From assembly GCA_964571295.1 (NCBI GenBank), contig CAZNAO010000001.1:3749-67748 (forward strand): DNA of 64,000 bases, in the 5' to 3' direction. Positions 2,440-45,282 of the stretch are shown here, piece by piece; position 1 is the stretch's first letter; each line of letters begins with the position of its first letter. Origin of the DNA: an uncultured Gammaproteobacteria bacterium (GTDB lineage Bacteria > Patescibacteriota > Patescibacteriia > Magasanikbacterales > UBA922). Position numbers and translations under genes: made by a program. Under the pieces are notes generated by a model. The model did not search any database. It was not told where the DNA came from and saw only the letters and a program-made list of their open reading frames with translations.

Positions 2440-3561
2440 ATGTCTCACCTCAATCGACTACTTATTCTTTCTCTTTCTACTGGAGGTGGGCATATACAAG
2501 CTGCACGCGCACTTGAAAAGACTGTAGCGCGCGATTTTCCCCACATTGTCTGTCGGCACATTGATGTAGCTGATTTTATTACCCCTCTATTCAAAACTAC
2601 TACGATCGGAGGATACAGCTTCCTCATTTCACATTTACCACGTGTCTGGAAATCTCTATTTAAGCTTACCGACAATACACGTATCATGTCGGCATATCGC
2701 ACGCTCACCAACTATCTCAAAAAATTAAATTCATTCGATTTTTTACACGAAGTCGAAGCTTTTCGTCCGGATCACATTATTTGCACCCATTTCCTACCTG
2801 CGGAAATACTTGCCCATGCTCAAAAAAAGCAAATGAATAAAATTCCCCTTACTGAAATCATCACTGACTATGGAGTACATCCTGCATGGGTGATCGATGG
2901 CATTGACACCTATATCGTTGCGACACCTTCCATGAAACAATACTTAACAGACTCCTTTGCCATTCCTTCTTCAGCCATTCAAACTTTTGGTATACCCATC
3001 GACCCTGCATTTCAAAATTCGGAAGATCCCGTACATCTCAAATCTTCATATGGATTTTCTCCTACCAACCCACTTATTCTAGTTTTGGCAGGCGGGAGCG
3101 GATTAATCGATATAGTAGCCGTACTTGAACGGCTTTTCTCACATATCGCTTCTCCTGTAACGATCATTGCGGTTGCGGGAAACAATGAAGTTCTCCATAG
3201 ACGTATCACCAAGCTTACTCCTCCTTCATATATTACTTATCGTACCTACGGTTGGACTGACCGTATTCCTGAATTTATGCGTATGGCCTCGGTAGTCGTA
3301 AGTAAACCTGGGGGACTTACCACCACGGAATGTATGTCCCTTGGAGTACCCTTGATCGCAATTAACCCGATCCCTGGACAGGAGGAATTTAATGTTGGCT
3401 TCCTTTCAGAGGCCGGAAGAGGTGCATATGCACCAACCATTGAGGATATCTGTCCACTTCTCGATCGATATCTCTCAACAGACTATGTACCAAAAGACCG
3501 TGTTTCTTCACGGTCTGCTCACCAGATTATAGAATTTCTCGCTTCTCAGCCATTATCATAG
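2440..3561 (+). CDS. GT28-family glycosyltransferase (MGDG-synthase/UgtP-like diacylglycerol glycosyltransferase)
   Basis: Track ORF 2425 starts with TTG; the in-frame ATG is at 2440. N-terminal LILSLSTGGGHIQAARAL and C-terminal KPGGLTTTECMSLGVPLI...PGQEEFN are hallmarks of MurG/MGDG-synthase GT28 enzymes. Confidence 0.8.
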   Translation: MSHLNRLLILSLSTGGGHIQAARALEKTVARDFPHIVCRHIDVADFITPLFKTTTIGGYSFLISHLPRVWKSLFKLTDNTRIMSAYRTLTNYLKKLNSFDFLHEVEAFRPDHIICTHFLPAEILAHAQKKQMNKIPLTEIITDYGVHPAWVIDGIDTYIVATPSMKQYLTDSFAIPSSAIQTFGIPIDPAFQNSEDPVHLKSSYGFSPTNPLILVLAGGSGLIDIVAVLERLFSHIASPVTIIAVAGNNEVLHRRITKLTPPSYITYRTYGWTDRIPEFMRMASVVVSKPGGLTTTECMSLGVPLIAINPIPGQEEFNVGFLSEAGRGAYAPTIEDICPLLDRYLSTDYVPKDRVSSRSAHQIIEFLASQPLS

Positions 3562-4013
3562 AGATTGGGATCGTTGGGCGGAATATATGTGTCCGGATCT
3601 TGCCCTGGGGTCATCGGATTTTGTAGGCTGCTGTAGAGCCCGCTGTACACCGCATACACGATACTATATGCTCCCAAAATGATGACCAGTCCGATCACGC
3701 TATAGAGTAATATCTTTTTACCCCCTCCCATCTTTTCTTCATTACCGTTTGAGGTCATAATCATGAATCCCCCTGCTATCGCAAAGACTACGGCGATCGT
3801 ACCAATCACGCCCAGGGAAATTTTTATCAAGCTTGCCGCAATAACTCGAGGATCTCTTGATTCTCCTAAATTCGCACCTTTTTGTCCGGCAAATCCCTGG
3901 AGTTGCTGATTGATGTCTGCTTGAAGTCCCTGCGCATACGCATAGGAACTAATACCCAGTCCTAAAGCAATCACCACTGCACCTATCCATATTTTTTTTG
4001 TACGCCACGTCAT
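3546..4013 (-). CDS. TrbC/VirB2-type (T4SS-pilin-like) small membrane protein, paralog 1 of 11
   Basis: Track ORF starts with TTG at 4043; the ATG at 4013 sits 13 nt after the upstream gene's stop. It has a signal peptide, then ISLGVIGTIAVVFAIAGGFMIMTSNGNEEKMGGGKKILLYSVIGLVIILGAYSIV (two TM helices around a short charged loop), and a Pro/Asp-rich tail. Confidence 0.7.
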   Translation of the reverse strand: MTWRTKKIWIGAVVIALGLGISSYAYAQGLQADINQQLQGFAGQKGANLGESRDPRVIAASLIKISLGVIGTIAVVFAIAGGFMIMTSNGNEEKMGGGKKILLYSVIGLVIILGAYSIVYAVYSGLYSSLQNPMTPGQDPDTYIPPNDPNLYDNG

Positions 4014-4026
4014 ATTCTTACTCTCA

Positions 4027-4431
4027 TTACTTAAATCCTCCAACCTCAGAAGCGATTCTGGTTAACACAAAATTCGTAATGCTATACGCGCATAAAATGA
4101 TGATAAGACCGATTATCGCGTACTGAATGATTTTCTTAGCACCCCCCACCTTCTCATCATTCCCTGCCGCAGTAAACATGATAAAACCTGCATAAAAGAC
4201 TAGTAGTAAAAATATCGTTCCAAGAAGGGAAAGCACTATCTTTACCCCTTCGGCCACGGCAATTCTAGGATCCTTGGCTTCAGCGCCATATCCTGCCGCA
4301 CCAGACCCTGCATTCAATTGTCCCAATACATCCGGGCCCGTACCGATTACTTCTCGTACCGGTAGTGCACTGCCCAGACACACCAACCCGATCATCATCC
4401 CCACCACTGCACTGTTCCATTTTTTTTTCAT
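4027..4431 (-). CDS. TrbC/VirB2-type pilin-like membrane protein, paralog 2
   Basis: Signal peptide, then KIVLSLLGTIFLLLVFYAGFIMFTAAGNDEKVGGAKKIIQYAIIGLIIILCAYSITNFV. ATG confirmed at 4431. Confidence 0.75.
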   Translation of the reverse strand: MKKKWNSAVVGMMIGLVCLGSALPVREVIGTGPDVLGQLNAGSGAAGYGAEAKDPRIAVAEGVKIVLSLLGTIFLLLVFYAGFIMFTAAGNDEKVGGAKKIIQYAIIGLIIILCAYSITNFVLTRIASEVGGFK

Positions 4432-4440
4432 ATGATCGGA

Positions 4441-4839
4441 TTATGGTGAGGTACTTGTAGCAGTAAGCGCACCCTCCATCACTCGTGTTACCACAAAATT
4501 GGTAATACTATATGCCATGAGCAATATGATAAGACCAATAATTGACGTACTGATAATACTTTTTGCCTTCGTTACCGCCTCATCGTTCCCCGCCGCAGTC
4601 ATCCAGAGATATCCTGCGTAAATAATAAGTACCGTAAAAATAACCCCCAGAAGTGACAACAGAATCCTTATTGCTCGCCCCACATTCTCAGCAAATGTCG
4701 TCTCGGTTGCCGCAGCATATCCTGCCCGTCCCGCTGCCTGATCTACTCTTTCAGTACCCAAATCAATTGCGTAGACTCCCGGAACAAATACGAACACAAG
4801 CATGAGGGAGAGAAGGAACGTTTTGAGACGGAAATACAT
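4441..4839 (-). CDS. TrbC/VirB2-type pilin-like membrane protein, paralog 3
   Basis: Signal peptide, then IRILLSLLGVIFTVLIIYAGYLWMTAAGNDEAVTKAKSIISTSIIGLIILLMAYSITNFV. Confidence 0.75.
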   Translation of the reverse strand: MYFRLKTFLLSLMLVFVFVPGVYAIDLGTERVDQAAGRAGYAAATETTFAENVGRAIRILLSLLGVIFTVLIIYAGYLWMTAAGNDEAVTKAKSIISTSIIGLIILLMAYSITNFVVTRVMEGALTATSTSP

Positions 4840-4850
4840 AGTATTGAATT

Positions 4851-5237
4851 TTAATTCCCAAACTGTCGAGTTACGAATATTGTAATTGCGTATGCAGAAA
4901 CCACAATAAACAATCCCATGATTGAGGATTTAAAAATTTCTTTCGCTTTTGAAACCATTTCATCATTTCCTCGAGCAGTCATCCAGAGATATCCTGCGTA
5001 GACGGTAAGAATAAGAAATACCAACCCAATCATGCTTAATGCTACTTTGATTATATTTCCCACAATCACGCTGATATCACTTTCGACATTTCCACCGATC
5101 CCTTGTTGCACATTTTTGAGATTATCGTCCGCACTCCCCAATCCTTGTCCCCAGACATGAAAAGGGATCATACCCCACGTAAGCATTACCACGAAGAGAA
5201 GATGGTAGACTTTTTTACCTGTTTTCGATACTTGCAT
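4851..5237 (-). CDS. TrbC/VirB2-type pilin-like membrane protein, paralog 4
   Basis: Upstream Met codons of the track ORF overlap the neighbouring gene, so the start is taken at the ATG at 5237 (MQVSKTGKK...). Core: VALSMIGLVFLILTVYAGYLWMTARGNDEMVSKAKEIFKSSIMGLFIVVSAYAITIFV. Confidence 0.7.
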   Translation of the reverse strand: MQVSKTGKKVYHLLFVVMLTWGMIPFHVWGQGLGSADDNLKNVQQGIGGNVESDISVIVGNIIKVALSMIGLVFLILTVYAGYLWMTARGNDEMVSKAKEIFKSSIMGLFIVVSAYAITIFVTRQFGN

Positions 5238-5259
5238 ACGATAATCTGAAATTATGTTT

Positions 5260-5652
5260 TTATAGTCCGACAGCTCCGGTAACAAATGTCGAAATTGCAA
5301 ATCCCGAAACCGCAATCAAGAGCCCGATAATTGCAGCAATAATGGTTTTTTTCGCCTCGGCAATCTTTTCTTCCTCACCACGTGCGAGAAACCATATCAC
5401 TCCGGCATAGAGCATGAGCAGGAAAAATATGAGACCGGTGATTCCAAAAAACCACTGTGCCACTTCTCCCACATACGTTGCTACTTCGTTTTTTGGAAGT
5501 CCAGTTGGTGCTATGGCCTGATTCAGCATTCCCGGAGCATCTCCGATTTTCTTTGCCGCATTCGCGATTGTACTATGCATGCACGCTACCAACAGTCCAG
5601 TACCTAGTCCTGTATAAATACCCCACTGTTTCTTTGTTCTTTTGGAGAACAT
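5260..5652 (-). CDS. TrbC/VirB2-type pilin-like membrane protein, paralog 5
   Basis: Start taken at ATG 5652 (MFSKRTKK...), one nt after the upstream TAG stop. Core: FFGITGLIFFLLMLYAGVIWFLARGEEEKIAEAKKTIIAAIIGLLIAVSGFAISTFV. Confidence 0.7.
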   Translation of the reverse strand: MFSKRTKKQWGIYTGLGTGLLVACMHSTIANAAKKIGDAPGMLNQAIAPTGLPKNEVATYVGEVAQWFFGITGLIFFLLMLYAGVIWFLARGEEEKIAEAKKTIIAAIIGLLIAVSGFAISTFVTGAVGL

Positions 5653-5653
5653 A

Positions 5654-6286
5654 CTAAGAAGGTTGCCATCTACACTTTGTATCTCCATTGCAACCATCTT
5701 CATCATTATTCCACATTTCACATTTATGTCCTGAACTTGTTACCGCAACACAGGTGATTCCGTTTGCACCACCTGCCATACAATAACCCACACGATCATC
5801 GTCATTGGTGGTACTACAAATCACTCCTCCCTGCCCCTGAATTTGGGTACAATATTCTTGATCGACTACACAACGACCTTGCGCAGTCGGAGTTGGCGTT
5901 GGTGTCGTATTTCCTCCACCACCACCTGCATTTCCCCCCAGCTGGAATACGAAATTGGTCAAGGCATACGCTCCCATGACGATAATAATACCGATCGTCG
6001 CCCCGATAATCGTATTGAGTGCCTTTCCCGTCTGCTCACTGTTGCCTCGCGCGGTCATCCAGAGGATTCCTCCGTATAGTACTAACACAAAAAATAATAC
6101 CGAAATCATAGAAAGCAATGTTCCTATGATGTTTCCTGCAATGGTTGGGACACTATTGCCATAACCAGTGAGACCCGCGGCACCCGCCGTCTCATCCAAC
6201 CCGAAATTCGCTGCCATGACGGTCGGTACCATCACCATTGACACTGCAATACATAAGCCGGTAATAAATGGTGCGTATTTGCGCAT
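5654..6286 (-). CDS. TrbC/VirB2-type pilin-like protein with a C-terminal Gly/Thr/Pro linker and Cys-rich domain, paralog 6
   Basis: Signal peptide, the conserved core (LLSMISVLFFVLVLYGGILWMTARGNSEQTGKALNTIIGATIGIIIVMGAYALTNFV), then GGNAGGGGGNTTPTPTPTAQG and an ~70-aa module with 9 Cys. Confidence 0.7.
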   Translation of the reverse strand: MRKYAPFITGLCIAVSMVMVPTVMAANFGLDETAGAAGLTGYGNSVPTIAGNIIGTLLSMISVLFFVLVLYGGILWMTARGNSEQTGKALNTIIGATIGIIIVMGAYALTNFVFQLGGNAGGGGGNTTPTPTPTAQGRCVVDQEYCTQIQGQGGVICSTTNDDDRVGYCMAGGANGITCVAVTSSGHKCEMWNNDEDGCNGDTKCRWQPS

Positions 6287-6316
6287 ACGATAGAAAAAAT
6301 TATTATTCTATTTACG

Positions 6317-6733
6317 TTATCCAAAACTGGGTCCACACGAACCAGTTGTAGCGCATAGTGCCCGTATGATGTAGCTTGTAATCGCGTATGATGTGAAAAT
6401 AATGATAAGCCCGATCACCGCTGAAATCAACATTTTTTTTGCACTCCCTACTTTCTCATCATTCCCCCCTGCGGTCATCCAGGTGAAACCTGCATAGAGC
6501 ACGATACATACCGCAATAAGCCCAAGAAACGTGAGGACAAAATTGATAATTCTAATAGCTAAAATTCGAGGATCCTCTTTTGTCAACCCCGTACCTTCCC
6601 CACAATCGACCCCCAATATGTCATTTGGATTACTGCATCCCTGCGCGTACACCTGACTTCCCCATAGCAGTGCGAGCCCAAAAAACGCTGCGACTACCAG
6701 TAATGCACGAGTTTTTTGTATGTTCATATGCAT
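6317..6733 (-). CDS. TrbC/VirB2-type pilin-like membrane protein, paralog 7
   Basis: The N-terminal mature region has Cys pairs (QGCSNPNDILGVDCGEG). Core: VLTFLGLIAVCIVLYAGFTWMTAGGNDEKVGSAKKMLISAVIGLIIIFTSYAITSYI. Confidence 0.75.
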   Translation of the reverse strand: MHMNIQKTRALLVVAAFFGLALLWGSQVYAQGCSNPNDILGVDCGEGTGLTKEDPRILAIRIINFVLTFLGLIAVCIVLYAGFTWMTAGGNDEKVGSAKKMLISAVIGLIIIFTSYAITSYIIRALCATTGSCGPSFG

Positions 6734-6840
6734 GGATTGAATTACTCACAGTTTTCCCGGCTTATTGTAACATACTAAGTCAGGAAAACTGTGATACCAT
6801 ATACTGTTTGGCATATGGTTCACAATATTTGTTCTGAAAC

Positions 6841-7275
6841 TTACGGTGTAGTACCTTCGATAGCTGCACCGATATTTGAGACAAAGAACTGAGCGATTGC
6901 ATATGCAGAGAGAATGATCGCAAGACCAATCACTGATGCAATAATAATCTTCTTTGCTTCGCCTACCGCTTCGTCATTGCCACCTGCGGTCATCCATTTG
7001 AAACCTCCCCAGAGGATCAAAATCACTGCGATCAAACCAAGGAACGTCAACGCGAGATTGATCAATCTAATGATGACGATTCGTGCATCGGTTTCACCAG
7101 TAGTTACATTGATATTTTGTGCAACCGGATCCAAACCATAGTCCACGCCAGGATCTATCTGTGCGCTCGTTGTTGCCGGTGAGAGAGAGAACACGCTTAC
7201 CAAAGCAGCGACGCCTAATAGGAGCGCATTTCGATGCTTCAGTAATTTTGCTACTGTGTTATTCACACTTCTCAC
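6841..7275 (-). CDS. TrbC/VirB2-type pilin-like membrane protein, paralog 8
   Basis: GTG start with an AAAGGGGG SD-like element just upstream. Core: LALTFLGLIAVILILWGGFKWMTAGGNDEAVGEAKKIIIASVIGLAIILSAYAIAQFF. Confidence 0.7.
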   Translation of the reverse strand: MRSVNNTVAKLLKHRNALLLGVAALVSVFSLSPATTSAQIDPGVDYGLDPVAQNINVTTGETDARIVIIRLINLALTFLGLIAVILILWGGFKWMTAGGNDEAVGEAKKIIIASVIGLAIILSAYAIAQFFVSNIGAAIEGTTP

Positions 7276-7339
7276 CCCCTTTCAATGTATGATATTTTTT
7301 CATACGCGTCACGTATTTTACGTGATGTGTTATTTACAC

Positions 7340-7987
7340 TTAAGGTGCAGCCTGTAAAGTCTGCAAAATCAACGTAAGTATAGCATAGCTGCTGAAAACC
7401 ACAATAATACCTATCCCAGCCCACAACATTGCCTGCATTCCTTTTGCAATTTTTTCTGAATTTCCCGCGCTCGTAAGCCACTGAAATCCTCCATAGACAA
7501 ATACCACAAACGCAATCGTACCAATTATTCCTACCACCACTTTTACCGTATTACCGAGAATTATTTTGATATCAGTCTCACCAAGCGGATTTACCAACGA
7601 CACACAGTCTTGTCCAGTCGCACAGCTGCTCGGCGTGTTGACGCTTTCATTGCTTTCCCGCTGTATCTGAATCTGTCTATACTCCTCGCACGACTGTGGC
7701 GAAGGAAATTTTTGTCCTGCAGGACATGAAGCAATGTCGGTCTCTGACTGCGAACAAAGCTTAGTAGTTGTGATATAGCAACTTCCTATAGCACCAGGGA
7801 GGACGAGATTTGGATCTTGGCACGCTCCTTCTCCAGAACCGTCATCTGCACAAACCAAACCCTCAAGACATTGTTCATCTATTTCACACGGTTCACCATT
7901 ACCGGCCTGTGCCTTAACAGGCAGCGACTGTCCTACCCCCATTATTACGATGAGTAATGCGATACTGTTTTTTAGTACACTTTTCAT
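7340..7987 (-). CDS. TrbC/VirB2-type pilin-like protein with an N-terminal Cys-rich ectodomain, paralog 9
   Basis: Signal peptide, then an ~120-aa segment with about 12 Cys (PCEIDEQCLEGLVCADD..GACQDP...), then the conserved core VVGIIGTIAFVVFVYGGFQWLTSAGNSEKIAKGMQAMLWAGIGIIVVFSSYAIL. Confidence 0.7.
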   Translation of the reverse strand: MKSVLKNSIALLIVIMGVGQSLPVKAQAGNGEPCEIDEQCLEGLVCADDGSGEGACQDPNLVLPGAIGSCYITTTKLCSQSETDIASCPAGQKFPSPQSCEEYRQIQIQRESNESVNTPSSCATGQDCVSLVNPLGETDIKIILGNTVKVVVGIIGTIAFVVFVYGGFQWLTSAGNSEKIAKGMQAMLWAGIGIIVVFSSYAILTLILQTLQAAP

Positions 7988-7993
7988 ATGATT

Positions 7994-9202
7994 TTAAAAT
8001 GGAAGTAGACTCGACTGAATTCCAATCGCTTTTACCACAAATCCAATAAGGATATACGCAGAAAAAGTAATAATAAGTCCCAAGGTTGCCGCTACCAAGA
8101 TTTGCTTCCCCTGTCCCACTTTTTCCGCATTTCCAAATGACATGATCATGGTGATCCCGCCATACACGAAGAAGACAAAAGCGAGTCCTGCAATCACGGA
8201 GAAAAGCCACTCTGCCACCTTTACCCCCAACTCAACCAGGTCTTCTACATTTCGACATGACCCATCCCATGCACAGTCCGGAAGTGGACCATTGTAATTT
8301 GCAGGTTTTTGATGTGTACTTGATATCCACGCATCTATTGCCTCGGAAGTATTCACCTGCACGATCCTGTCTACACATTTTTCATTATCCCCTATCTTAC
8401 AGTGCAGCACTTTAGTACATGTATTTGGATCCAACTCACTACATTTGGTTGTATTATCTGACTTAGAGATGCATTTTGCACCTGTCTGCCACCACAGACA
8501 CGCCGCATCCGCATTACACTGCTCTACATTTGCTCCGTATTTACTTTGACAAGCTGTATTGGTCGGCGGATAATCATTGTTACCCGCTATTTTCATGAAA
8601 TAGACAAACACTTCATCCGGATTCTGGTCCAATTCACAAAACCAGTATCTGGTACGAAATAACTCGTCATCTCCCTCAATTGCGCTTTCTTGTGCAAAAT
8701 GATATTTGGTTACCAAATCATCTGGCTCATTGTCAGGATATGCACCGCTATTACAGCCGCGATCTGCGCTATTATTCCCTTCAAAAATCCACTCACCATT
8801 TTCTTCACCCGGACTCATTCTGAATTGTCTGATCACATCCTCATCACCCCATTCTGGACTTATGATTTTATTTCCCGTGACATTGACCCCATTGATGAGA
8901 TCTGTCCACTCCGCCCATGTTTTATCTTTTGCCACGGTTACACAAAAAAATTCACCTCGGTTATCTTTGGGATGGTGTGTCTGATAATCAAAATCCTCAT
9001 TAGTCTGATGACTTCCATTAAATTTTTCTCCATTTGGGCGAGTTATCTTAAAAATGGCAATTTGTTGATTTTCATTCGGTGCTACCGGACATTTGAATCC
9101 TTTTAAATCCACAGGATATTCAGCTGCTACGGCACTTCCTGTCCATGCACCAAATGCGAGAAGTAGTGCGATAATATATATGTTGACTTTTCTATATCTC
9201 AT
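7994..9202 (-). CDS. large TrbC/VirB2-type pilin-like fusion: unknown ~300-aa N-terminal ectodomain plus C-terminal pilin core, paralog 10
   Basis: Signal peptide and a long Cys-containing extracellular region, with C-terminal core WLFSVIAGLAFVFFVYGGITMIMSFGNAEKVGQGKQILVAATLGLIITFSAYILIGFV. The N-terminal domain is paralogous to that of 10695..11738 (YPVDLKGFKCPVAPNENQQIAIFK vs YTVNLGDFKCPQAPENNRKIAIFK). Confidence 0.7.
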   Translation of the reverse strand: MRYRKVNIYIIALLLAFGAWTGSAVAAEYPVDLKGFKCPVAPNENQQIAIFKITRPNGEKFNGSHQTNEDFDYQTHHPKDNRGEFFCVTVAKDKTWAEWTDLINGVNVTGNKIISPEWGDEDVIRQFRMSPGEENGEWIFEGNNSADRGCNSGAYPDNEPDDLVTKYHFAQESAIEGDDELFRTRYWFCELDQNPDEVFVYFMKIAGNNDYPPTNTACQSKYGANVEQCNADAACLWWQTGAKCISKSDNTTKCSELDPNTCTKVLHCKIGDNEKCVDRIVQVNTSEAIDAWISSTHQKPANYNGPLPDCAWDGSCRNVEDLVELGVKVAEWLFSVIAGLAFVFFVYGGITMIMSFGNAEKVGQGKQILVAATLGLIITFSAYILIGFVVKAIGIQSSLLPF

Positions 9203-9210
9203 ATATCAAA

Positions 9211-10596
9211 TCAATAGGTTTGCTGAATTTTTGCCGCCGTATTTATGATTACCGACTTATCTTTTCTCAGTGTTTCTTCCGGAGTATTTCCCTGTCTCAG
9301 AAACTCGGTTATCATATCTTTCAATGCAGTGGTCGCCACATCCACTTCTCGTCCTCGATACCAATTTTCTGCAAAGAGTGCCTGTGTCGCAAATGGACCC
9401 AGTGTTTCATTCTCCTGTTGTGCCGTAATCTGTTCCCGATACGGACTTGGCCTGAATGTGGCAGTCACGTATTGCTGCACTTTTTCTTTCGAGGTAATAA
9501 AATTCACGAAGCCCCATGCCTCATTCTGATTCTGGGATTTTTTCACGACTGATTCCACCCAATAATTGGCAACGTTTACCGGTGTTTCCGGATTGAGTTG
9601 TGGAATAGTTGCAATCTTGATCGCGAGCTGTGGAGCGCGCGCTTGCAATCTCGGATAATCATACGCGAATCCAAGGAAAAATGCCGTGCGACCTCTCACG
9701 AATTCGTCAAACGCATTTTGCATACGATCATTCCAGCTATACCGATCTGCGGTCGCTCGTGCGAAACCGGTATAGAAATCGAGCGCTCGGATGGTCGAGT
9801 GTGTCCGACTCTGATCTCGATCAACTCCAGAGGCAAATGCTACCGTATCCCCGTCTGTCACTTTTGACCCACTTTGAAGCATGAGTAGTGCAACAATGTC
9901 TGCAAAATTATCGATATTATTCGATGTGCCCATCGCGACTCCCGATTGGATTATATCGAGCGTAGCACTGAATTTCGTCGTCTGTTGCACCGCACGTACA
10001 AACTCATCCCAGGTCTTTGGAGCTTCCGCAATACCCGAGCGATCAAGAATCGTCTGATTGTAGAACAATGCAAGCGAATCAAGGGCCATCGGAAGGCCGA
10101 AAATACCTTCATTGATAATGATATCTTTTGCGACCGTCTGGACATACTGATTTCGAATGTCACGTTCCCGGGGAAGTGATACCGTATCCACCACCACTTC
10201 CTGCTCTTTGGTATATTGATTCTTGGTTATCAGACGTGGTAATTGTACCGATGCAGGTGCCGCAGCAAGTCTGCTTTCATTCTTCCTAAGCCACCGAACA
10301 TGCATCGATACGATATCCGGACCCACATCATCCGCAAGCGCATTGGTGAACAATGAATCGAATTCTTCATACCGTACTTGTCGAATATTGATCGTTACAT
10401 GCGGATAACGCGCTGAATACTCCACTGCATACGCTCGCAATTGTTCGACATCTCCGTAGACCGTCCAATAATTCAAAGTGATCGGACGGAGTGATGCCCG
10501 CTCTTCCTGATTCAATCCTTTACAACCAAAACCACTGAATATCAAAAGAACACTCAACACTCCCAAGGATAGTAGCGATGTAACTTTTTTCCTCAT
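9211..10596 (-). CDS. ABC-transporter extracellular solute-binding lipoprotein (family-1 SBP, sugar-type)
   Basis: Signal peptide with lipobox LIFSGFGC and a 461-aa periplasmic-binding-protein-like product. It lies between the two large pilin-fusion paralogs. Confidence 0.65.
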   Translation of the reverse strand: MRKKVTSLLSLGVLSVLLIFSGFGCKGLNQEERASLRPITLNYWTVYGDVEQLRAYAVEYSARYPHVTINIRQVRYEEFDSLFTNALADDVGPDIVSMHVRWLRKNESRLAAAPASVQLPRLITKNQYTKEQEVVVDTVSLPRERDIRNQYVQTVAKDIIINEGIFGLPMALDSLALFYNQTILDRSGIAEAPKTWDEFVRAVQQTTKFSATLDIIQSGVAMGTSNNIDNFADIVALLMLQSGSKVTDGDTVAFASGVDRDQSRTHSTIRALDFYTGFARATADRYSWNDRMQNAFDEFVRGRTAFFLGFAYDYPRLQARAPQLAIKIATIPQLNPETPVNVANYWVESVVKKSQNQNEAWGFVNFITSKEKVQQYVTATFRPSPYREQITAQQENETLGPFATQALFAENWYRGREVDVATTALKDMITEFLRQGNTPEETLRKDKSVIINTAAKIQQTY

Positions 10597-10611
10597 AACA
10601 TTCCATCTTAA

Positions 10612-10685
10612 GTCGAAAGTCTGTAAAGTCGAAAGTCTGTAAAGTAATTGGTGTTTTGGTTTATGGACTTTAAGACTTTACGGAC
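10612..10685. repeat. intergenic repeat: perfect tandem 16-mer GTCGAAAGTCTGTAAA x2 (10612-10643) plus the inverted, related GGACTTTAAGACTTTACGGAC (10665-10685)
   Basis: Read directly from the sequence. Related motifs occur at 12634-12694 and 31099-31170. Confidence 0.8.
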
Positions 10686-10694
10686 GTTATAGGC

Positions 10695-11738
10695 TCATTT
10701 AAATATTTCAAATATAAATCCTACCAGTGCGTAACTTGCAAAAATAAGCGCTACCCCCAGGGTCGCCCACACTATCGTATTTTGCGCTTTCGTCTGAGTT
10801 TCCGAATTTCCCCGGGCGGTCATCCACAATACTCCACCATAAATGATCATTATGAGTGCAATGGTACCGATTATCCCAAGCACCCCTCGAATGAGCATTC
10901 CCACAAACTGAGAAAGATCTGTCGTCTGAAGCAGATTCAATCTCCGGGCATATTCGGATAGATTACTTGTTCCACCCGTACTTGAACTCGTATTTCCTCC
11001 TGAATTTGAAGAAGGTGTCGAAGACGCGGAGGGGTCATCTGGCGCAGGATAGTCTTCTTTCTCCGCAATTTTCATAAAATACACAAAAGCCTGTTCAACC
11101 CCATGACCTTCATCACTGGGAATGCCGTAAAAATAAAATCTTACTCGCGGAGCAAGATTTGCCTCCTGCTCCGAAAGAGGTCCACACCCATACAAAAACG
11201 TAGGCAAACATGTTTGGGCAAAATGATACATTACATCGTTATCGTCCGGTTCATCATTGGCATCTGAGGATCCCATCACCTCGTTCCAACCATAACCAGT
11301 TCCGTCTGCTTGTCGTTCATCCTTCCACTCGTCGTCTACATAAAATTGTCTAATCACATCTTCATTTCCCCATTCAGTAGGAACTAGTTTTTGCCCCACA
11401 ATATCAACCCCCTGGGTCAGATCATTCCATGTCGCTGAGTTTCGATTCTTATCTACCGTTATGCAGAAAAATCGCCCGGAGTCGAGTTTCGGCTGATGTT
11501 CTACTGTATTATAATGCTCTGTCTCTTCTCCATCATCATCAAACTCTGTCGCACCATTGGCCACATCCGGGATAACCAATTTGAAAATCGCTATTTTTCT
11601 GTTGTTCTCCGGAGCCTGCGGACATTTAAAATCACCAAGATTGACTGTATACGGCTCTGTTGCGGCCACACTTCCCGTCCACGCACACCACAACATCATG
11701 GTTGCCGCGATATATGAATAAACTGCCGTTTTGGTCAT
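10695..11738 (-). CDS. large TrbC/VirB2-type pilin-like fusion with the shared N-terminal ectodomain, paralog 11
   Basis: Paralog of 7994..9202 across the N-terminal domain (GRFFCITVDKNRNSATWNDLTQGVDIVGQKLVPTEWGNEDVIRQF vs GEFFCVTVAKDKTWAEWTDLINGVNVTGNKIISPEWGDEDVIRQF). Ser/Thr/Gly-rich linker, then core VLGIIGTIALIMIIYGGVLWMTARGNSETQTKAQNTIVWATLGVALIFASYALVGFI. Confidence 0.7.
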   Translation of the reverse strand: MTKTAVYSYIAATMMLWCAWTGSVAATEPYTVNLGDFKCPQAPENNRKIAIFKLVIPDVANGATEFDDDGEETEHYNTVEHQPKLDSGRFFCITVDKNRNSATWNDLTQGVDIVGQKLVPTEWGNEDVIRQFYVDDEWKDERQADGTGYGWNEVMGSSDANDEPDDNDVMYHFAQTCLPTFLYGCGPLSEQEANLAPRVRFYFYGIPSDEGHGVEQAFVYFMKIAEKEDYPAPDDPSASSTPSSNSGGNTSSSTGGTSNLSEYARRLNLLQTTDLSQFVGMLIRGVLGIIGTIALIMIIYGGVLWMTARGNSETQTKAQNTIVWATLGVALIFASYALVGFIFEIFK

Positions 11739-14184: not shown

Positions 14185-14802
14185 TTAATTGGTTTTTAAG
14201 TTTCGTATCTGCGTAATTGATTCTACGCGAATTGGCACTGGACTCTTACTCTGATCTTTCTCAATCTGAACCATTACCTTTACCATGCGAATATTCGGAA
14301 TGGTAATCGGTGACACCATGGGCGAGCCGGTTCCTGTATATGATTCAGTAAAATACTGAAACGTATCGATTCCTTTTACTGCATTTTCCACATTGTGTAC
14401 GAGCACCGTTACTTGTTCGGTACCTGTATACGCAAGTGGGTTGCCACTTGGTTTCAAAATTCCGCGCCGAAGTTCAGAGCCTTGTATCCAATAGCGTACA
14501 CGCTCTCGGAGCGAATCCTCATCTATATTCGCATATACCGTGAGTGTCGAGGTGGTCGCAGTTGCAATCGGGTATGAACCCACACTTGAACTTTCTGCAG
14601 TACGAACGACATTCGTGATTTCAGTTACGATACGCCTTGCTTCACGTTGCCCATAAAGCTGATCATCAAGAATTTTCTGATCCTTGAAACTGAGCGCAAT
14701 AAACGTTCCTGCGCCCATCAAAATAATCAAGGTAATCCCGATTACAACCGACACTTCAAGCAGTGACATGCCACGGATGCTGTGTCCAACATAGTATTTC
14801 AT
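14185..14802 (-). CDS. type IV prepilin-like protein (minor pilin candidate)
   Basis: N-terminal RG|MSLLEVSVVIGITLIIL is a class III signal with Glu at +5 and Met in place of Phe at +1. Overlaps the upstream gene by 4 nt. Confidence 0.55.
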   Translation of the reverse strand: MKYYVGHSIRGMSLLEVSVVIGITLIILMGAGTFIALSFKDQKILDDQLYGQREARRIVTEITNVVRTAESSSVGSYPIATATTSTLTVYANIDEDSLRERVRYWIQGSELRRGILKPSGNPLAYTGTEQVTVLVHNVENAVKGIDTFQYFTESYTGTGSPMVSPITIPNIRMVKVMVQIEKDQSKSPVPIRVESITQIRNLKTN

Positions 14803-16565
14803 AGTGACATAAGATCAGCAGTGAGTACATGATCTCCCGTAATCTCCAATTCATCTTGAAAAGTTTCGAACCCTTCCGCCTCAATCGTTATCATATATGT
14901 CCCACCAACAAGCCCCCCCACATAGGTCTGCCCCGGCGGTGTACATTCATTCGTATAGATAAACGATATATCAGATACAAGCGGCGTTACTAATGGATTT
15001 GTCGTATCCAGATACACACGATACCTCATGAATTGTTCATCATCATGTATCGATGAAATTGTAATCATGTTATCCGTATAGAACGTCGCTCCTGTCCCGT
15101 CTGGTCCCACAAAATTCCATTCTGCATTACTTGAGGTAGCAGTAGCAATTTGCAATCTGACCGTGGTTGACGCGGGCTGAGTCATTGGATCCCATGACCA
15201 CTGGATATAGCGTGCACGTTCACCAACTTCAATCGTCGATGATTCGAGATATCCACTACTTACATATTGAGTTCCATTTTTCACCAAAGACAAATTACCT
15301 GGACTACTGTAGACATCAATACCTGATCCCGCGCCATATCCGTTTCCACCACCGAAAATTTCGTACCCTTCTCCAAGCGACCAGTCGGTCTGCACAACAC
15401 TTCCCACACCCGTCATTTTTTCAGAAAAAAAATTTTCAGGTCCGGTAATGATCACAGAGGCTCCAGCAATGGGTGCTCCTTGATGACGCGCAAGCACGAT
15501 CAAAGATCGAGGAGTATCCGGACCTACAATTAGGGTTGCATTTTGTGATGAACCAGGTAAAAGCGATATTGGTACATCAGGAATAGTTCCTATGAGATCA
15601 TACCCCGTGACACCCATGCCATATTTATCCCACGACAATGGTAGCGAAAGCACACCTCCAGCACCTGTGCTGTACGTTTCATTTACCAAATATATGTCAG
15701 GATTGGTTCCGATTACTCGAGTCCCTTTAATTGCGAGCTCCACATTCGGGACCTCCACACATTGAACATTTTCTGAAGTAATCTGGAGTGAAGATGTACG
15801 GTCAATTGTCAGGGTCAAATTACTTACCTCTTGCTTCAATACTGAGACAAACGGTGTCACCGGATTCGGATTTGCAGGTGTTGATGAACGTGTATGATCA
15901 AATGTATATCCTGACTTAGTCGCTTCGATCACATATTTTGCGGTACTTGTTGCCAAATCATAGATACGAAGATACCCCTCATTATCGGTCGTATCGAAAA
16001 AATCATATGCAGGGTTGGTAGTTGTATTCACTACATGTACCACCGCCTCTGGTACAGGATCGCCGTATGCATTTATCACACGTACGAACAATGCGCCATT
16101 ATTTGAATTCCCTTCTAGATATTTAGGAGCTACGTAGGTGTACATCGAAAGTTCTTCAACTTGTCCGCATGAAATGCAGCGTACGTCTACCTGCACAAAC
16201 TTATAATCCGCAGGGGCAGTATCTGATGGAGTTCCACCAACCACCCCATCATACGGGTCATCAATATTTCTAATAGTATGTGTTACCTCGAATATCATTC
16301 CGTTCCGATTGGTCGATGTCACTCGATCGAATACACCAACCGGACTCCCATTCTTAATACCCACATTTTCAAATGATGTATTGCGAATGATTTCTATACG
16401 CTCATTTAAAAGAGCGGTTCCAATAATCCGTATACGAGATTGATACACCAGAGAAAAACTGAGTTGCACACTTCCATAAATTCCAACGACAAAGATTACA
16501 AACACGCCGAGTGCCACCACTGCCTCGACCAAGGTAAATCCTCGTGTTCGAATAGGGTTTTTCAT
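14799..16565 (-). CDS. large type IV prepilin-like protein (588 aa)
   Basis: Canonical prepilin leader MKNPIRTRG|FTLVEAVVALGVFVIFVV, followed by a ~550-aa beta-rich extracellular region. Confidence 0.7.
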   Translation of the reverse strand: MKNPIRTRGFTLVEAVVALGVFVIFVVGIYGSVQLSFSLVYQSRIRIIGTALLNERIEIIRNTSFENVGIKNGSPVGVFDRVTSTNRNGMIFEVTHTIRNIDDPYDGVVGGTPSDTAPADYKFVQVDVRCISCGQVEELSMYTYVAPKYLEGNSNNGALFVRVINAYGDPVPEAVVHVVNTTTNPAYDFFDTTDNEGYLRIYDLATSTAKYVIEATKSGYTFDHTRSSTPANPNPVTPFVSVLKQEVSNLTLTIDRTSSLQITSENVQCVEVPNVELAIKGTRVIGTNPDIYLVNETYSTGAGGVLSLPLSWDKYGMGVTGYDLIGTIPDVPISLLPGSSQNATLIVGPDTPRSLIVLARHQGAPIAGASVIITGPENFFSEKMTGVGSVVQTDWSLGEGYEIFGGGNGYGAGSGIDVYSSPGNLSLVKNGTQYVSSGYLESSTIEVGERARYIQWSWDPMTQPASTTVRLQIATATSSNAEWNFVGPDGTGATFYTDNMITISSIHDDEQFMRYRVYLDTTNPLVTPLVSDISFIYTNECTPPGQTYVGGLVGGTYMITIEAEGFETFQDELEITGDHVLTADLMSL

Positions 16566-18735: not shown

Positions 18736-20532
18736 TTGAAATTTAAGTTGGATGAGATCATTTATCAAAAATATGATATACTATCTCCGTACATTGGATT
18801 TCATTCCATTTTTCTTATGTTACCCTTGGACGAACTCAAGCTTCTCTTGACCAAAAAATTCAAATTAAGCACGGGAGATATTACTACCTACCTTGAAGAA
18901 GCGAAGAGTCGAGGAAAGGATCTTGAAACATATCTTATTGAGAAAAATATACTCAAAGAGGACGTTCTTTACGATACGATTGCCGAGGTTTTTGGTTTTT
19001 CCCGAATCACCTTAAAAGGCAAAGATATCCCCCCTGAAGTCTTACACGAACTACCTGAAGCATTTGCTGAGGCACATACCATTATCGCATTCGAGAAAAC
19101 CGACCACATTCTTCGTGTTGCGCTTACCGATCCTACTGACATCCAAACTATCGAATTCATCAAGCGCAAGACACGAAAAGACGTGGAGGTGTTTGTTGCA
19201 ACCTCGCGAGATATCCGTGAAGCGCTTCGGAAATATCGGCTGGATCTGAAACAGGAGTTGAGTCAACCACTGTCCCATAATGATTCGACTGATCTCAAAA
19301 AAGCCGCTGAGGAGCTGCCTATTATCAATATCGTTAAAACTATTCTCGAGCATTCAGTATTTGAAAATTCAAGTGATATCCATATTGAACCGACCGAGGG
19401 TGACGTAGTCGTTCGATTTAGAATCGACGGCATTCTTCGGGAGATGATGCATTTACCAAAACCGGTACAAAATGGCATTGTCGCACGCATTAAAATTCTT
19501 TCAAACCTGAAGATTGACGAGCACATGATTCCACAAGATGGACGTTTCAAAATTTCAGTCCAGGGCGAAACATTATCGTTTCGCGTGTCGATCATTCCGG
19601 TCTATGACGGCGAAAAGATTGTCATGCGTCTTCTCCACGAAGGACAAAAACCTCTTACACTCGATGAACTCGGATTTTTACCCGGTATCAAAGAACTGGT
19701 GGAGGAGTCGATCGAGAAACCGCACGGCATGGTTCTCGTCACTGGTCCGACCGGATCTGGAAAAACAACCACACTCTATTCTCTTCTCGGCATGCTCAAT
19801 CAGCCAGATGTAAATATCTGCACTATCGAAGACCCGATCGAGTATCATGTGGGTGGTATTAATCAAAGCCAGATCAATCCTAAAGCCGGATTTACGTTTG
19901 CCTCAGGACTTCGCGCATTCCTCAGACAAGACCCAGATATTATTATGGTCGGAGAAATTCGTGACAAAGAAACTGCAGAAATTGCGATCCATGCCGCGAT
20001 GACTGGACACCTCGTACTTTCAACCCTCCACACCAACGACGCTCCGACCACGCTTCCACGCTTACTCGACATGGATATTCCACCGTTTTTAGTGGCATTC
20101 ACTTCAAATATCATTATTGCTCAGCGATTGGTCAGAAAAATTTGCCCGAATTGTAAAGAATCCTTCAAATTGAGTGGCAAAGAATTGAAGCAAATTCACA
20201 CACTTATTGACCGATCTACCATGACCTCGTTATTCAAACAATATAAAATTCCGTTTTCCGCAAAAGAAAAAACTTTGGAATCCATGACGTTTTACCGAGG
20301 TAAAGGGTGTAAGAAATGCAGTAATTCAGGATATAAAGGTCGTATTGGTATTTACGAAGTCATGGTAATTGACGAAGGACTCCAAAAAATTATCAATACG
20401 AATGCCACAGCGACCGATATCAAAACACACGCACTAAAACACGGTATGATTACCCTCTTTCAGGATGGATTTCTCAAGGCAAAACAAGGAATCACCACGA
20501 TTGAAGAAATCTTACGCGCAACCAAAGACTAG
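18736..20532 (+). CDS. pilB: type IV pilus assembly ATPase PilB (GspE family)
   Basis: GspE-N domains, Walker A VLVTGPTGSGKTTTLYS, Asp box, and a CxxC...CxxC zinc motif (CPNC...CKKC). The first codon is TTG; the alternative ATG is at 18817. Confidence 0.85.
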   Translation: MKFKLDEIIYQKYDILSPYIGFHSIFLMLPLDELKLLLTKKFKLSTGDITTYLEEAKSRGKDLETYLIEKNILKEDVLYDTIAEVFGFSRITLKGKDIPPEVLHELPEAFAEAHTIIAFEKTDHILRVALTDPTDIQTIEFIKRKTRKDVEVFVATSRDIREALRKYRLDLKQELSQPLSHNDSTDLKKAAEELPIINIVKTILEHSVFENSSDIHIEPTEGDVVVRFRIDGILREMMHLPKPVQNGIVARIKILSNLKIDEHMIPQDGRFKISVQGETLSFRVSIIPVYDGEKIVMRLLHEGQKPLTLDELGFLPGIKELVEESIEKPHGMVLVTGPTGSGKTTTLYSLLGMLNQPDVNICTIEDPIEYHVGGINQSQINPKAGFTFASGLRAFLRQDPDIIMVGEIRDKETAEIAIHAAMTGHLVLSTLHTNDAPTTLPRLLDMDIPPFLVAFTSNIIIAQRLVRKICPNCKESFKLSGKELKQIHTLIDRSTMTSLFKQYKIPFSAKEKTLESMTFYRGKGCKKCSNSGYKGRIGIYEVMVIDEGLQKIINTNATATDIKTHALKHGMITLFQDGFLKAKQGITTIEEILRATKD

Positions 20533-20538
20533 TATAGT

Positions 20539-21660
20539 ATGGCAGACGCTTATTCATTTGCACAACCTACTTCCCAACCACGAGGCCTCAATGCGTTTAT
20601 GCTGGAGCACGTTACTCGCGTTCCATTGGTCGATCGTATTTTTTTTCTTGACCATCTACGTACCATGATTCATGCCGGTCTTTCCCTGGTCGAAGGACTT
20701 CATGTCTTGAGCAAAGAAACACAAAACAAAAAATTATTACATATCGTCGGAGACATTACTGCATACGTAGAAAAAGGGAATCAGTTGAGCGATGCCTTGA
20801 AACGATATCCTAAAATTTTTCCCGATCTTCAGACTACGATGATCGCTTCAGGTGAGATTGCTGGACAACTTGAAGAATCTTTGGAGCAGGTGGTCACACA
20901 AATGAAAAAAAGTCATGCTCTGACTTCGAGTATTAAAGGTGCCATGATTTACCCTGCAGTCGTGGTTTCTGCGATTGTGGTTATTGGTATTCTCATGGTC
21001 ACACTGGTATTGCCCAAGATCATCTCTCTATTCGATGAATTTGACGCTGAACTCCCACTTGCTACGCGCATCCTTATTGCCGTTACCAATTTTCTCTCAA
21101 AACCACTCAATTTGATTCTTATTTTTGCAGGAATTCTTGGTTTAATTACCTTATTTGTCTCCCTGCTTAAATCAAACATCTCGTTCAGGCGATCCGTGCA
21201 CACGCTTATCCTCAAACTTCCCATTGTTGGTCCTATTTCAAAAAAAATTAATCTTGCTCGTTTCTCAATCACACTTGCCTCTCTCCTCAAAAGCACCATT
21301 CCAATCGTGGATGCACTCCATATTTCTGCACAAACTTGTAAAAACATGCTTTACCGAGAAGCACTCGAGGCGGCAACACAAACGTTATCAAAAGGAGAGC
21401 AACTTTCTGACATTCTTTCGCAAAAACCCGAGCTGTTTCCTCCCATGGTTACTGAGATGGTCATGGTCGGTGAAAAAACCGGAGAAATCGATCACCTGCT
21501 TCAAGAATTATCTTCGTTCTATTCTGATGAAGTTGATAAAATTATGAAGAATTTCGCGACTATTATTGAACCTGTCGTAATTATTCTTCTCGGTCTTGGA
21601 GTTGCCGGAATTGCAGTTGCAGTCGTCATGCCAATGATGTCGTTAACCCAAAGTTTCTAA
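20539..21660 (+). CDS. pilC: type IV pilus platform protein PilC (GspF family)
   Basis: Two GspF repeats and three TM segments (e.g. MIYPAVVVSAIVVIGILMVTLVLP). Confidence 0.8.
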   Translation: MADAYSFAQPTSQPRGLNAFMLEHVTRVPLVDRIFFLDHLRTMIHAGLSLVEGLHVLSKETQNKKLLHIVGDITAYVEKGNQLSDALKRYPKIFPDLQTTMIASGEIAGQLEESLEQVVTQMKKSHALTSSIKGAMIYPAVVVSAIVVIGILMVTLVLPKIISLFDEFDAELPLATRILIAVTNFLSKPLNLILIFAGILGLITLFVSLLKSNISFRRSVHTLILKLPIVGPISKKINLARFSITLASLLKSTIPIVDALHISAQTCKNMLYREALEAATQTLSKGEQLSDILSQKPELFPPMVTEMVMVGEKTGEIDHLLQELSSFYSDEVDKIMKNFATIIEPVVIILLGLGVAGIAVAVVMPMMSLTQSF

Positions 21661-21664
21661 TCAC

Positions 21665-32446: not shown

Positions 32447-32568
32447 AGATGAGTTCCTAAAAATAACGTTTTCAATTATAGCAACGTGCACGGCCTGTGA
32501 CCAGAGGGGTGCACATGTATACTACACCAAACCAAAGTCCGCTCTTTCAAGCGGACTTTTAGGTATGG

Positions 32569-33039
32569 TTATGTTTTTTTCTCTTCTTCATGATCACAAT
32601 CACATTCACATGTGTTACTTTCACTACACCCCCATCCGCACACATTTGCTTTCTTTCCCACGACCGAACATTTTCCTGGACCAGTCGTATGAAGGGCAAG
32701 TAGGGCACCGAGAAGCACGATAGGAAGCTCGGTTGCGCCGCCATACGGCATCTTGGTATGCACTGCGAGAAGTGCTACCACCATATCGATTGCGAGAAGT
32801 GCCGTTACGATCCGATTGAAGAGTCCTGCGATAATCGCGATACCGCCGACAAATTCAAGAAGTGCCACGAGCCAAGCCCAAAAAGCCGGTATCGGCAGAC
32901 CGATTCCTTGCATCATCCCCACGGTCATGTCCATACTCGTCAATTTCATCCAGCCATGATAGACAAAGACCACTCCAACCGCCACACGAAGTGCCAATAA
33001 TCCCCAATTAGCACACTTATTTGAAGCATTCCAATTCAT
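32569..33039 (-). CDS. DoxX-family membrane protein with a Cys-rich C-terminal tail
   Basis: DoxX-like TM pattern (LRVAVGVVFVYHGWMKL...) plus the tail CSVVGKKANVCGWGCSESNTCECDCDHEEEKK. Confidence 0.65.
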   Translation of the reverse strand: MNWNASNKCANWGLLALRVAVGVVFVYHGWMKLTSMDMTVGMMQGIGLPIPAFWAWLVALLEFVGGIAIIAGLFNRIVTALLAIDMVVALLAVHTKMPYGGATELPIVLLGALLALHTTGPGKCSVVGKKANVCGWGCSESNTCECDCDHEEEKKT

Positions 33040-45036: not shown

Positions 45037-45282
45037 ATTCTGTGCATAACTGAGGGAAAAATATGCATTTTAACTGGGGACGATGATGTGGGTAAGTAAA
45101 AGTTTTCCACACCCATGGTGGATAGTCCAAAATATACACACGCTTTGTTCAACCTTTGTTCTCCATTTATCCCCACACAAAAATGAAATATTTTGCTAAA
45201 ATAAGCCACTAAATTGAATTATCTACCGTATCCACAGCCTCTATTATTATCTTCTAGATTATATAAATAAAAAGAAAGAAAT
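45037..45282. other. candidate oriC (dnaA-dnaN intergenic region)
   Basis: At least four DnaA-box-like 9-mers (TTTTCCACA 45103, TGGATAGTC-rc 45118, TTATCCCCA 45167, TATCCACAG 45229) plus an AT-rich stretch TATTATTATCTTCTAGATTATATAAATAAAAAG just before dnaN. Confidence 0.6.

Follow-up and report, generated by a model that had tools for sequence, protein, structure and literature searches.

Cysteine-rich modules carried by a tandem array of VirB2-like pilins in a Candidatus Magasanikbacteria chromosome

Why do neighbouring genes for pilin-like proteins carry dense clusters of cysteines, at the C-terminus in one protein and at the N-terminus in another? The question is raised by a stretch of 64,000 nucleotides (contig CAZNAO010000001.1, assembly GCA_964571295.1; hereafter the window), in which positions 5654-7987 hold four complete open reading frames (ORFs), paralogs 6 to 9 of a tandem pilin set. 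A first-pass annotation had proposed that cysteine-rich, probably extracellular and ligand-binding modules were shuffled onto a constant membrane anchor, and every peptide string that it quoted is encoded where it had been placed, in minus-strand ORFs. Here we describe the set as an array of eleven pilins that belong by their sequence features to the VirB2 class (coordinates in Table 1), with cysteine-rich modules appended at either end of the core, and show that such modules are swapped among cores in related genomes. The reading we favour, with a probability of roughly 55%, is that of a decorated pilin array, in which constant VirB2-like carriers would present exchangeable surface heads that recognise a host or partner cell.

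Pilin cores and their cysteine-rich modules

All eleven paralogs match the Pfam family T4SS_pilin (PF18895), with scores of 28.8-41.2 bits against a gathering cut-off of 26.6 bits; matches below threshold were obtained to TrbC/VirB2 (PF04956) in several paralogs and to the NCBIfam model NF045849, a pilin-like conjugal transfer protein of integrative and conjugative elements of Mycoplasma. The signal peptide, the two hydrophobic helices and the short basic loop that characterise the family are recognisable from hydropathy, AlphaFold2 models and loop charges. For paralogs 6 and 9, which were modelled, AlphaFold2 returns the core as a confident two-helix hairpin, comprising in paralog 6 helices 46-78 and 83-118 with a per-residue confidence (pLDDT) of about 90. 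The N_methyl motif (PF07963, IPR012902) has no match in any of the eleven paralogs, whose signal peptides are of the Sec type, with AxA-like cleavage sites behind the N-terminal hydrophobic segment (VMA/AN in paralog 6, VYA/QG in paralog 7, VKA/QA in paralog 9). The "pilin-like core" of the first-pass annotation stands, but needs sharpening: judged by these sequence features, it is a VirB2/TrbC-type type IV secretion pilin and not a type IV pilus pilin. Pairwise identity among the cores of the window ranges from 20 to 55% (mean 36%), and with eleven genes on one strand the set conforms to the published description of a Patescibacterial VirB2-like pilin array as at least two tandem divergent genes (PMC12102498). 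A sequence-profile search of the PDB gave no match, hence no solved homolog by sequence, and fold searches returned only generic helical hairpins.

Classical VirB2, TrbC and TraA pilins (PF04956, PF18895) resemble the window proteins in their Sec signal peptide, two helices, basic loop, small core and outward termini, but are single-domain proteins of 60-120 amino acids (aa; precursors of about 60-130 aa), some of them cyclised. By comparison, the window pilins carry modules of 70-300 aa, belong to a monoderm-like host and form an eleven-gene chromosomal array with no virB4 nearby. Paralogs 7 and 8 (138 and 144 aa) are near the classical pilin size; paralogs 6, 9, 10 and 11 (210, 215, 402 and 347 aa) are not small single-domain pilins.

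In paralog 6 the addition is C-terminal. The core is followed by the Gly/Thr/Pro linker that had been noted earlier, confirmed as GGNAGGGGGNTTPTPTPT, and then by a tail of 72 aa with eight cysteines (C139, C146, C157, C169, C179, C189, C199 and C205). The C-terminal module of about 70 aa is thus as first described, except that its supposed ninth cysteine, C12, lies in the signal peptide. Paralog 9 carries its module at the N-terminus, with ten cysteines (C34, C40, C46, C56, C70, C78, C88, C100, C122 and C128) in about 110 aa instead of the roughly twelve in 120 aa counted before. Cysteine makes up 10.8% of the paralog 6 tail and 9.1% of the paralog 9 module, compared with 0.64% across 32 further window genes (12,994 aa; binomial P = 3e-8 and 3e-9, respectively). 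This 14-17-fold enrichment over the other window proteins is real and not an effect of composition. The membrane-proximal loop of the paralog 9 module is invariant in 13 of 13 aligned orthologs and is the sole Cys pair in short orthologs of 131-135 aa. Paralog 7 has only short Cys-pair loops, as had been claimed (C33/C44 and C127/C133); these four ectodomain cysteines are invariant in 8 sequences, while C76, within the first helix, is not conserved.

The modules of the window resemble little that is catalogued. Searched in isolation against Pfam, the paralog 6 tail matched no family up to E = 10, and the paralog 9 module only EB at E = 0.053; the DUF4215 (PF13948) hidden Markov model (HMM) has no match in the window modules. 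A profile of the paralog 9 module, run against 1.84 billion representative proteins, found three matches only, all of them pilins. Paralogs 10 and 11 share a distal domain of about 200 aa (36% identity, E = 3e-35), and their domains likewise have no Pfam match up to E = 10.

Exchange of modules between cores

The comparison with syntenic loci of related genomes separates the history of the modules from that of the cores. At position 6 of these loci a C-terminal tail is always present, in proteins of 184-266 aa. In six genomes the position-6 core is 82-97% identical to that of paralog 6 (E of about 1e-37 to 1e-40), yet the tail of window paralog 6 has no significant similarity to the tails of these six proteins (best E = 0.026). 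The orthologous tails match DUF4215 (in four tails), DUF7107, EB, Dickkopf_N and SH3_3; among their Cys patterns are repeats of the DUF4215 type and of a "WCLTxENxC" type. The secreted Cys-rich modules DUF4215 (PF13948, a repeat), EB, DUF7107 and Dickkopf_N thus occur on orthologous tails and not on the window modules.

Conversely, one module occurs on different cores. The paralog 9 module is found at position 9 in the window and in five related loci (L001, L003, L008, L009 and L010, with a variant middle unit in L003), and in three others (L005, L006 and L007) it has shrunk to the invariant proximal C-x5-C loop, leaving proteins of 131-135 aa. At position 11, where the N-domains of other genomes are quite different, a module of the paralog 9 type sits on the core in P0091, L007 and L008. 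The paralog 9 module is 33-34% identical over 102 aa to the position-11 N-modules of L007 and L008 (BLASTP, E of about 1e-10), and P0091 matches the module profile with E = 2e-13, while the position-11 core of L007 is only 39% identical to the paralog 9 core. One core is thus seen with unrelated modules, and one module with distinct cores, which directly demonstrates modular shuffling among pilin cores, and the shuffling onto a constant anchor that the first-pass annotation had read from the window alone is borne out. One further position-11 pilin (L003, 4594-5760) carries an N-domain of about 300 aa that is unrelated to window paralog 11 and without Pfam match; it contains an AHSAG stretch resembling the nucleophile elbow of serine hydrolases, and this N-domain may be an enzyme domain grafted onto the pilin core.

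Decorated pilins are widespread among the relatives. A scan of one genome per GTDB species returned more than 590 relatives; the best 80 loci belong mostly to Magasanikbacteria, with some from Falkowbacteria, Uhrbacteria, Nomurabacteria, Paceibacteria and Veblenbacteria. A core HMM run over the collected loci (86 after removal of duplicates) identified 759 pilin ORFs, 2-14 per locus. C-terminal tails of at least 25 aa occur in 203 of these ORFs, and 148 of the 203 contain at least four cysteines; N-terminal ectodomains of at least 60 aa occur in 123 (114 with at least four cysteines), and N-ectodomains of any length with at least four cysteines number 128. At least one pilin with four or more cysteines in its module is present in 70 of the 86 loci. 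The tails have a median length of 80 aa and often 6-8 cysteines. The spacing C-x6-10-C-x4-8-C-x-W recurs in 14 of 150 Cys-rich tails (shuffle mean 1.2); as in paralog 6, it usually stands within 1-6 residues of the C-terminus. The N-domains at position 10 have it as well, in every sequence examined. A homology of the paralog 6 tail cap (C-x9-C-x5-C-x-W) to the motif of paralog 10 is only suggested by the similarity of the two sequences (BLASTP E = 0.04). A second unit, C-x2-[DNSTE]-x2-C-x3-8-C-x3-12-C, appears far above shuffled expectation in both N-modules (for example unit A of paralog 9) and C-tails.

Tails of this size behind a flexible linker, with a recurring C-terminal C-x-W cap, would suit small secreted disulfide-rich peptides, and one may ask whether cleavage in the linker frees a defensin- or knottin-like effector or toxin that acts on the host. 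We regard this as improbable: Pfam searches of the modules and of the ortholog tails gave no similarity to a toxin or bacteriocin family, the N-terminal modules, placed between signal peptide and core, show no obvious linker, many tails consist of repeats of the kind typically seen in adhesins (DUF4215, WCL repeats), and the array has no associated protease gene.

Rates of evolution were compared between the window and its close relative L009, at a synonymous divergence (dS) of about 0.55-0.8 for most genes. Very strong purifying selection acts on the pilin cores; that of paralog 6 (aa 27-125) shows a nonsynonymous divergence (dN) of 0.005 at a dS of 0.72. The dN/dS ratio of paralog 6 is about 0.15 in the tail versus about 0.007 in the core. 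In paralog 9 divergence is concentrated in aa 28-75, where dN reaches 0.43 with indels and saturated dS, about 27-fold the dN of 0.016 in the remaining protein; all four cysteines of the distal unit are kept in L009. dS is unusually low in the tail of paralog 6 (5657-5872; dS 0.175, dN 0.027) and in the whole of paralog 8 (6841-7275; dS 0.107), which suggests recent mosaic recombination within the array, between lineages.

The localised divergence in aa 28-75 of paralog 9 could also be taken to mean that a diversity-generating retroelement (DGR), a diversification system common in bacteria of the Candidate Phyla Radiation (CPR), acts on the variable modules, and at one locus (L006, 16722-17126) an Avd-like gene (PF22296 / 23S_rRNA_IVP) lies a few kb from the array. 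This explanation is very unlikely, and we rejected it on the lack, in the 64-kb window, of a template-like second copy of the module DNA and of a reverse transcriptase among the scanned ORFs; the indels and the elevated dS also suit recombination or replacement better than adenine-directed mutagenesis.

Location and possible role of the modules

Lys and Arg residues that flank the membrane segments are confined to the loop between the helices (for example WMTARGNSEQTGK), and the modules are acidic, that of paralog 9 having 4 Lys/Arg against 18 Asp/Glu. In the F pilin TraA, the alpha2-alpha3 loop faces the cytoplasm in the membrane form and the lumen in the pilus, and both termini are outside (PMC5018250). 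Since this homologous pilin places both termini outside, modules on either terminus would be extracytoplasmic. The Cys positions of the modules are conserved in orthologs, and the number of ectodomain cysteines is even in 80 of 94 collected homologs, most of the odd cases being boundary artefacts; in a wider set tail Cys counts are even in 168 of 187. An enrichment of CPR bacteria in an MdbA-like thiol-disulfide oxidoreductase, together with VKOR, has been reported (PMC6744442). From the signal peptides, the basic loop, the topology of TraA, the even Cys counts and the families matched by ortholog tails we strongly infer that the modules are extracellular and disulfide-bonded, in agreement with the first-pass annotation. 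No result points to a cytoplasmic location of the modules, and no known intracellular metal-binding domain was found to match them.

The high density of cysteines might instead serve the binding of a metal, as Zn, Fe-S or Cu sites in place of disulfides. This is hardly credible: the modules contain very little His and neither CxxC nor CxxH pairs, their cysteines are even in number and spaced by 5-11 residues, their predicted location is extracytoplasmic, no metal-binding Pfam family matches them, and ortholog tails match disulfide-rich families of extracellular proteins. Spacing and parity of the cysteines, scarcity of His and topology were the grounds on which metal binding was rejected.

How might such proteins work? 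In a decorated pilin array each paralog would be exported by its Sec-type signal peptide and would adopt in the membrane the form of a two-helix hairpin with both termini facing outward, its short basic loop (W-M/L-T-A/S-x-G-N-x-E...K) turned towards the cytoplasm or, in an assembled filament, towards the lumen. The modules, probably stabilised by disulfides, are fused to the N-terminus in paralogs 9, 10 and 11 and, by way of the Gly/Thr/Pro spacer, to the C-terminus in paralog 6, with paralog 7 having minimal Cys-pair loops only; both termini are predicted to face outward. The core would act as the constant carrier, responsible for membrane insertion and, if a filament forms, for polymerisation; the modules are gained, lost and swapped between paralog cores and replaced between genomes, their distal parts evolving fast. 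They would be presented either on the cell membrane itself or on a VirB2-like filament, and would most likely serve the recognition of, or adhesion to, the surface of a host or partner cell, the bacterium being presumably episymbiotic. We hypothesise that the modules are incorporated into a pilus and bind ligands.

Several observations weigh against this picture. No virB4, virB6 or other gene of a type IV secretion system (T4SS), which would be expected alongside such pilins, was found among the approximately 50 ORFs scanned in the window. Nor did a crude filter on Walker A motif and length retrieve VirB4 from the 10 kb around the arrays of the 86 loci; its yield was PilB, FtsH, ABC, ComM and SMC proteins only. 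Since type IV pilus genes neighbour the array, without a T4SS gene, the locus itself does not identify the assembly machine. Reviews grant these bacteria only a "potential to elaborate conjugative pili" (PMC12857230), and a filament of PF18895 pilins has not been visualised in any Patescibacterium. In the F pilus about 72% of the TraA surface is buried (PMC5018250), and by analogy modules of 70-300 aa on every subunit may be too large for an F-pilus-like lattice, in which case the decorated paralogs could be sparse, located at the tip or never polymerised. The paralog 6 tail is modelled by AlphaFold2 with low confidence (pLDDT <55), for which reason there is no fold or disulfide map of it, and Pfam, fold and PDB-profile searches gave no fold or domain match of the window modules that points to a ligand. 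Finally, a disulfide oxidoreductase gene for the modules was not found within the window. As to the first of these points, a published survey found pilin genes near virB4 in 1135 of 1948 assemblies (PMC12102498), so that an array distant from virB4 is not unusual.

The main rival does without a pilus: the VirB2-like hairpin would have been co-opted as a simple two-helix membrane anchor that displays the small disulfide-rich heads, and the larger ectodomains of paralogs 10 and 11, on the cell surface below the S-layer. It draws on the same failure to find VirB4 or VirB6 in the window or near the 86 related arrays, on ectodomains of up to 300-470 aa that look too bulky for a tight VirB2 lattice, and on the solute-binding protein gene that sits inside the array. 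Set against these, a dN/dS of about 0.01-0.02 in core and loop motif, with 82-97% identity, exceeds what a passive anchor needs, undecorated paralogs occur in the same array as expected of major and minor subunits, and the pilin array of Southlakia lies inside a T4SS cluster and is essential (PMC10633639). We therefore consider an anchor without a pilus unlikely, while taking it more seriously than any other competing explanation.

Among the known systems that come close are the tandem arrays of 2-11 divergent VirB2-like paralogs described in Patescibacteria (Quinonero-Coronel et al., 2025, PMC12102498), of which that of Southlakia epibionticum is essential (Wang et al., 2023, PMC10633639). 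As in these, the paralogs of the window, eleven in number, are tandem, divergent and near the replication origin. In contrast to them, the published pilins are small and structurally conserved, and appended Cys-rich modules are mentioned neither in these two papers nor in a review (PMC12857230); moreover, the arrays of Saccharimonadia lie inside a T4SS cluster, whereas that of the window lies beside type IV pilus genes, with no T4SS gene found in 64 kb. The Bartonella and Anaplasma T4SS loci hold tandem variable copies of VirB2, thought to broaden interaction with the host surface or to evade immunity (cited in PMC12102498), but there the variation arises by substitution within small pilins and not by grafted domains. 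The closest concept, that of a pilin carrier with an effector module grafted on by a short linker, is known from modular type IV pilins such as PilB of Streptococcus sanguinis, which occur in many architectures, have a predicted role in adhesion and probably sit at the tip (Raynaud et al., 2021, PMC8179133). Those proteins differ in their N_methyl class III signal peptide, single N-terminal helix, processing by PilD and exclusively C-terminal grafts, and the parallel is only an analogy between unrelated pilin classes. Flagellins likewise combine a conserved polymerisation core with a diverse surface-exposed region (PMC7018530), although their variable region is a central insertion and filament and assembly system are different.

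Full-text literature searches on Patescibacteria/CPR pilins together with cysteine-rich or disulfide terms returned no description of module-bearing VirB2-like pilins. That VirB2-like pilin arrays are widespread in Patescibacteria, and essential in the one tested case, was already known; new here are the many pilins of one large clade with swappable, fast-evolving and probably disulfide-bonded modules, and the ability of the same module to move between paralog cores. The "carrier plus grafted effector module" principle also extends in this way from type IV pilus pilins to the unrelated VirB2 class, hitherto seen as minimal and single-domain. Patescibacteria (CPR) may account for a large share of bacterial diversity and are mostly attached to other microbes; the modules offer concrete candidates for determinants of host recognition. 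More tentatively, and with distinctly less confidence than the display of surface heads as such, one may imagine combinatorially decorated VirB2-like filaments whose swappable disulfide-rich heads, on either terminus of constant subunits, determine host range and are exchanged between paralog cores and between genomes like the tips of phage tail fibres. Such a "modular VirB2 pilin" system would be a class of pilin without a described counterpart among type IV secretion systems.

The array locus and its surroundings

The DNA of the window is part of a chromosome of Candidatus Magasanikbacteria (Patescibacteria), a placement based on the names of homologs, which are those of Candidatus Magasanikbacteria or Patescibacteria; the window contains the chromosomal markers dnaA, dnaN, polA, trigger factor and genes for ribosomal proteins and tRNA synthetases. 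A plasmid or phage origin was rejected, tblastn giving no match in plasmid and phage collections. The window includes the replication origin, with dnaA and dnaN at 43648-46410 and a minimum of GC skew at about 44-46 kb. The pilin array is on the leading strand, about 32-40 kb to the left of the origin, a position that echoes the frequent proximity of Patescibacterial T4SS components to dnaA (PMC12102498).

The gene order NTP-transferase, pilin 11, solute-binding protein, pilins 10 to 1, monogalactosyldiacylglycerol (MGDG) synthase and Band_7 is common to the related loci L001, L003 and L005-L010, of which L009 and L010 are truncated at contig ends. The conserved neighbours of the array are type IV pilus genes, including PilB, PilC and PilM at 18736-22774.

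Table 1. Positions of the pilin array, its modules and other features in the window; residue numbers refer to the respective protein.
Feature	Position	Strand	Basis or remark
Array of 11 T4SS_pilin (VirB2-like) paralogs with one solute-binding protein gene between	3546..11738	-	PF18895, all 11
Four complete ORFs	5654-7987	-	Paralogs 6, 7, 8 and 9 of the set
Paralog 6 gene, 210 aa, with signal peptide, core, linker and Cys-rich module at the C-terminus	5654..6286	-	
Paralog 6 signal peptide, aa 1-25 (...VMA/AN), including C12	6212..6286	-	Sequence; hydrophobic segment 7-25
Paralog 6 two-helix core, aa 46-116, loop WMTARGNSEQTGK	5939..6151	-	PF18895 at aa 47-113
Paralog 6 Gly/Thr/Pro linker, aa 117-138, GGNAGGGGGNTTPTPTPTAQGR	5873..5938	-	Sequence; pLDDT <50
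Paralog 6 8-Cys module, aa 139-210, 72 aa, terminal C-x9-C-x5-C-x-W-QPS	5657..5872	-	
C-x-W motif in paralog 6, aa 189-207	5666-5722		
C-x-W motif in paralog 10, aa 218-237			
Paralog 7 gene, 138 aa, two short Cys-pair loops	6317..6733	-	Signal peptide VYA/QG
Paralog 7 N-terminal Cys pair C33-x10-C44, before first membrane helix	6602..6637	-	
Paralog 7 C-terminal Cys pair C127-x5-C133, directly after second membrane helix	6335..6355	-	
Paralog 8 gene, 144 aa, undecorated pilin without Cys	6841..7275	-	Internal comparator
Paralog 9 gene, 215 aa, with signal peptide, 10-Cys module at the N-terminus and core	7340..7987	-	AlphaFold2 mean pLDDT 79
Paralog 9 N-terminal module, aa 27-137	7577..7909	-	
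Paralog 9 unit A (C34, C40, C46, C56), distal, fast-evolving, 4 Cys	7820..7888	-	
Paralog 9 unit B (C70, C78, C88, C100)	7688..7780	-	Kept in P0001-P0007; other orthologs lack it or have a replacement
Paralog 9 membrane-proximal loop C122-x5-C128 (C..GQDCVSL.NPL)	7604..7624	-	
Paralog 9 two-helix core, aa 140-213	7349..7570	-	PF18895 at aa 140-207; helices 140-172, 177-213
Paralog 10, 402 aa: N-terminal ectodomain of about 300 aa with 14 Cys on pilin core	7994..9202	-	
SBP_bac_1 solute-binding protein gene, between pilins 11 and 10	9211..10596	-	Library match
Paralog 11, 347 aa: large N-terminal ectodomain on pilin core	10695..11738	-	
Modular type IV pilin, 588 aa, N_methyl prepilin motif and CarboxypepD_reg	14799-16565	-	Domain match
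DoxX/MauE-family membrane protein beside pyridine-nucleotide-disulfide oxidoreductase	31193-33039	-	
1019-aa protein, four Lamin Tail Domains, PKD domain and OB-fold	55666-58725	+	Domain match

The SBP_bac_1 gene occupies the same array position in every syntenic locus, a possible link between uptake and pilins. The modular type IV pilin, of the type surveyed in PMC8179133, adjoins the VirB2-like array in all syntenic loci as well. The DoxX/MauE-family protein and the adjacent pyridine-nucleotide-disulfide oxidoreductase are the only genes related to thiol redox chemistry seen in the window. The 1019-aa protein with Lamin Tail Domains is, by its domain content, probably a large surface or secreted protein.

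A promoter scan of the array returned promoter-like sites at chance level, and terminator-like sites fall within genes. The mechanically called ORFs of paralogs 5 (5260-5721) and 4 (4851-5315) are over-extended at their 5' ends, their orthologs being 114-150 aa long. For paralog 5 the true start is likely M24, at about 5652, so that its apparent overlap with the 3' end of paralog 6 would not be real. Lastly, many records of metagenome-assembled genomes titled "uncultured Gammaproteobacteria bacterium" (L012-L015, L022-L024 and others) carry this Patescibacteria-specific array, and their titles are evidently mislabelled.

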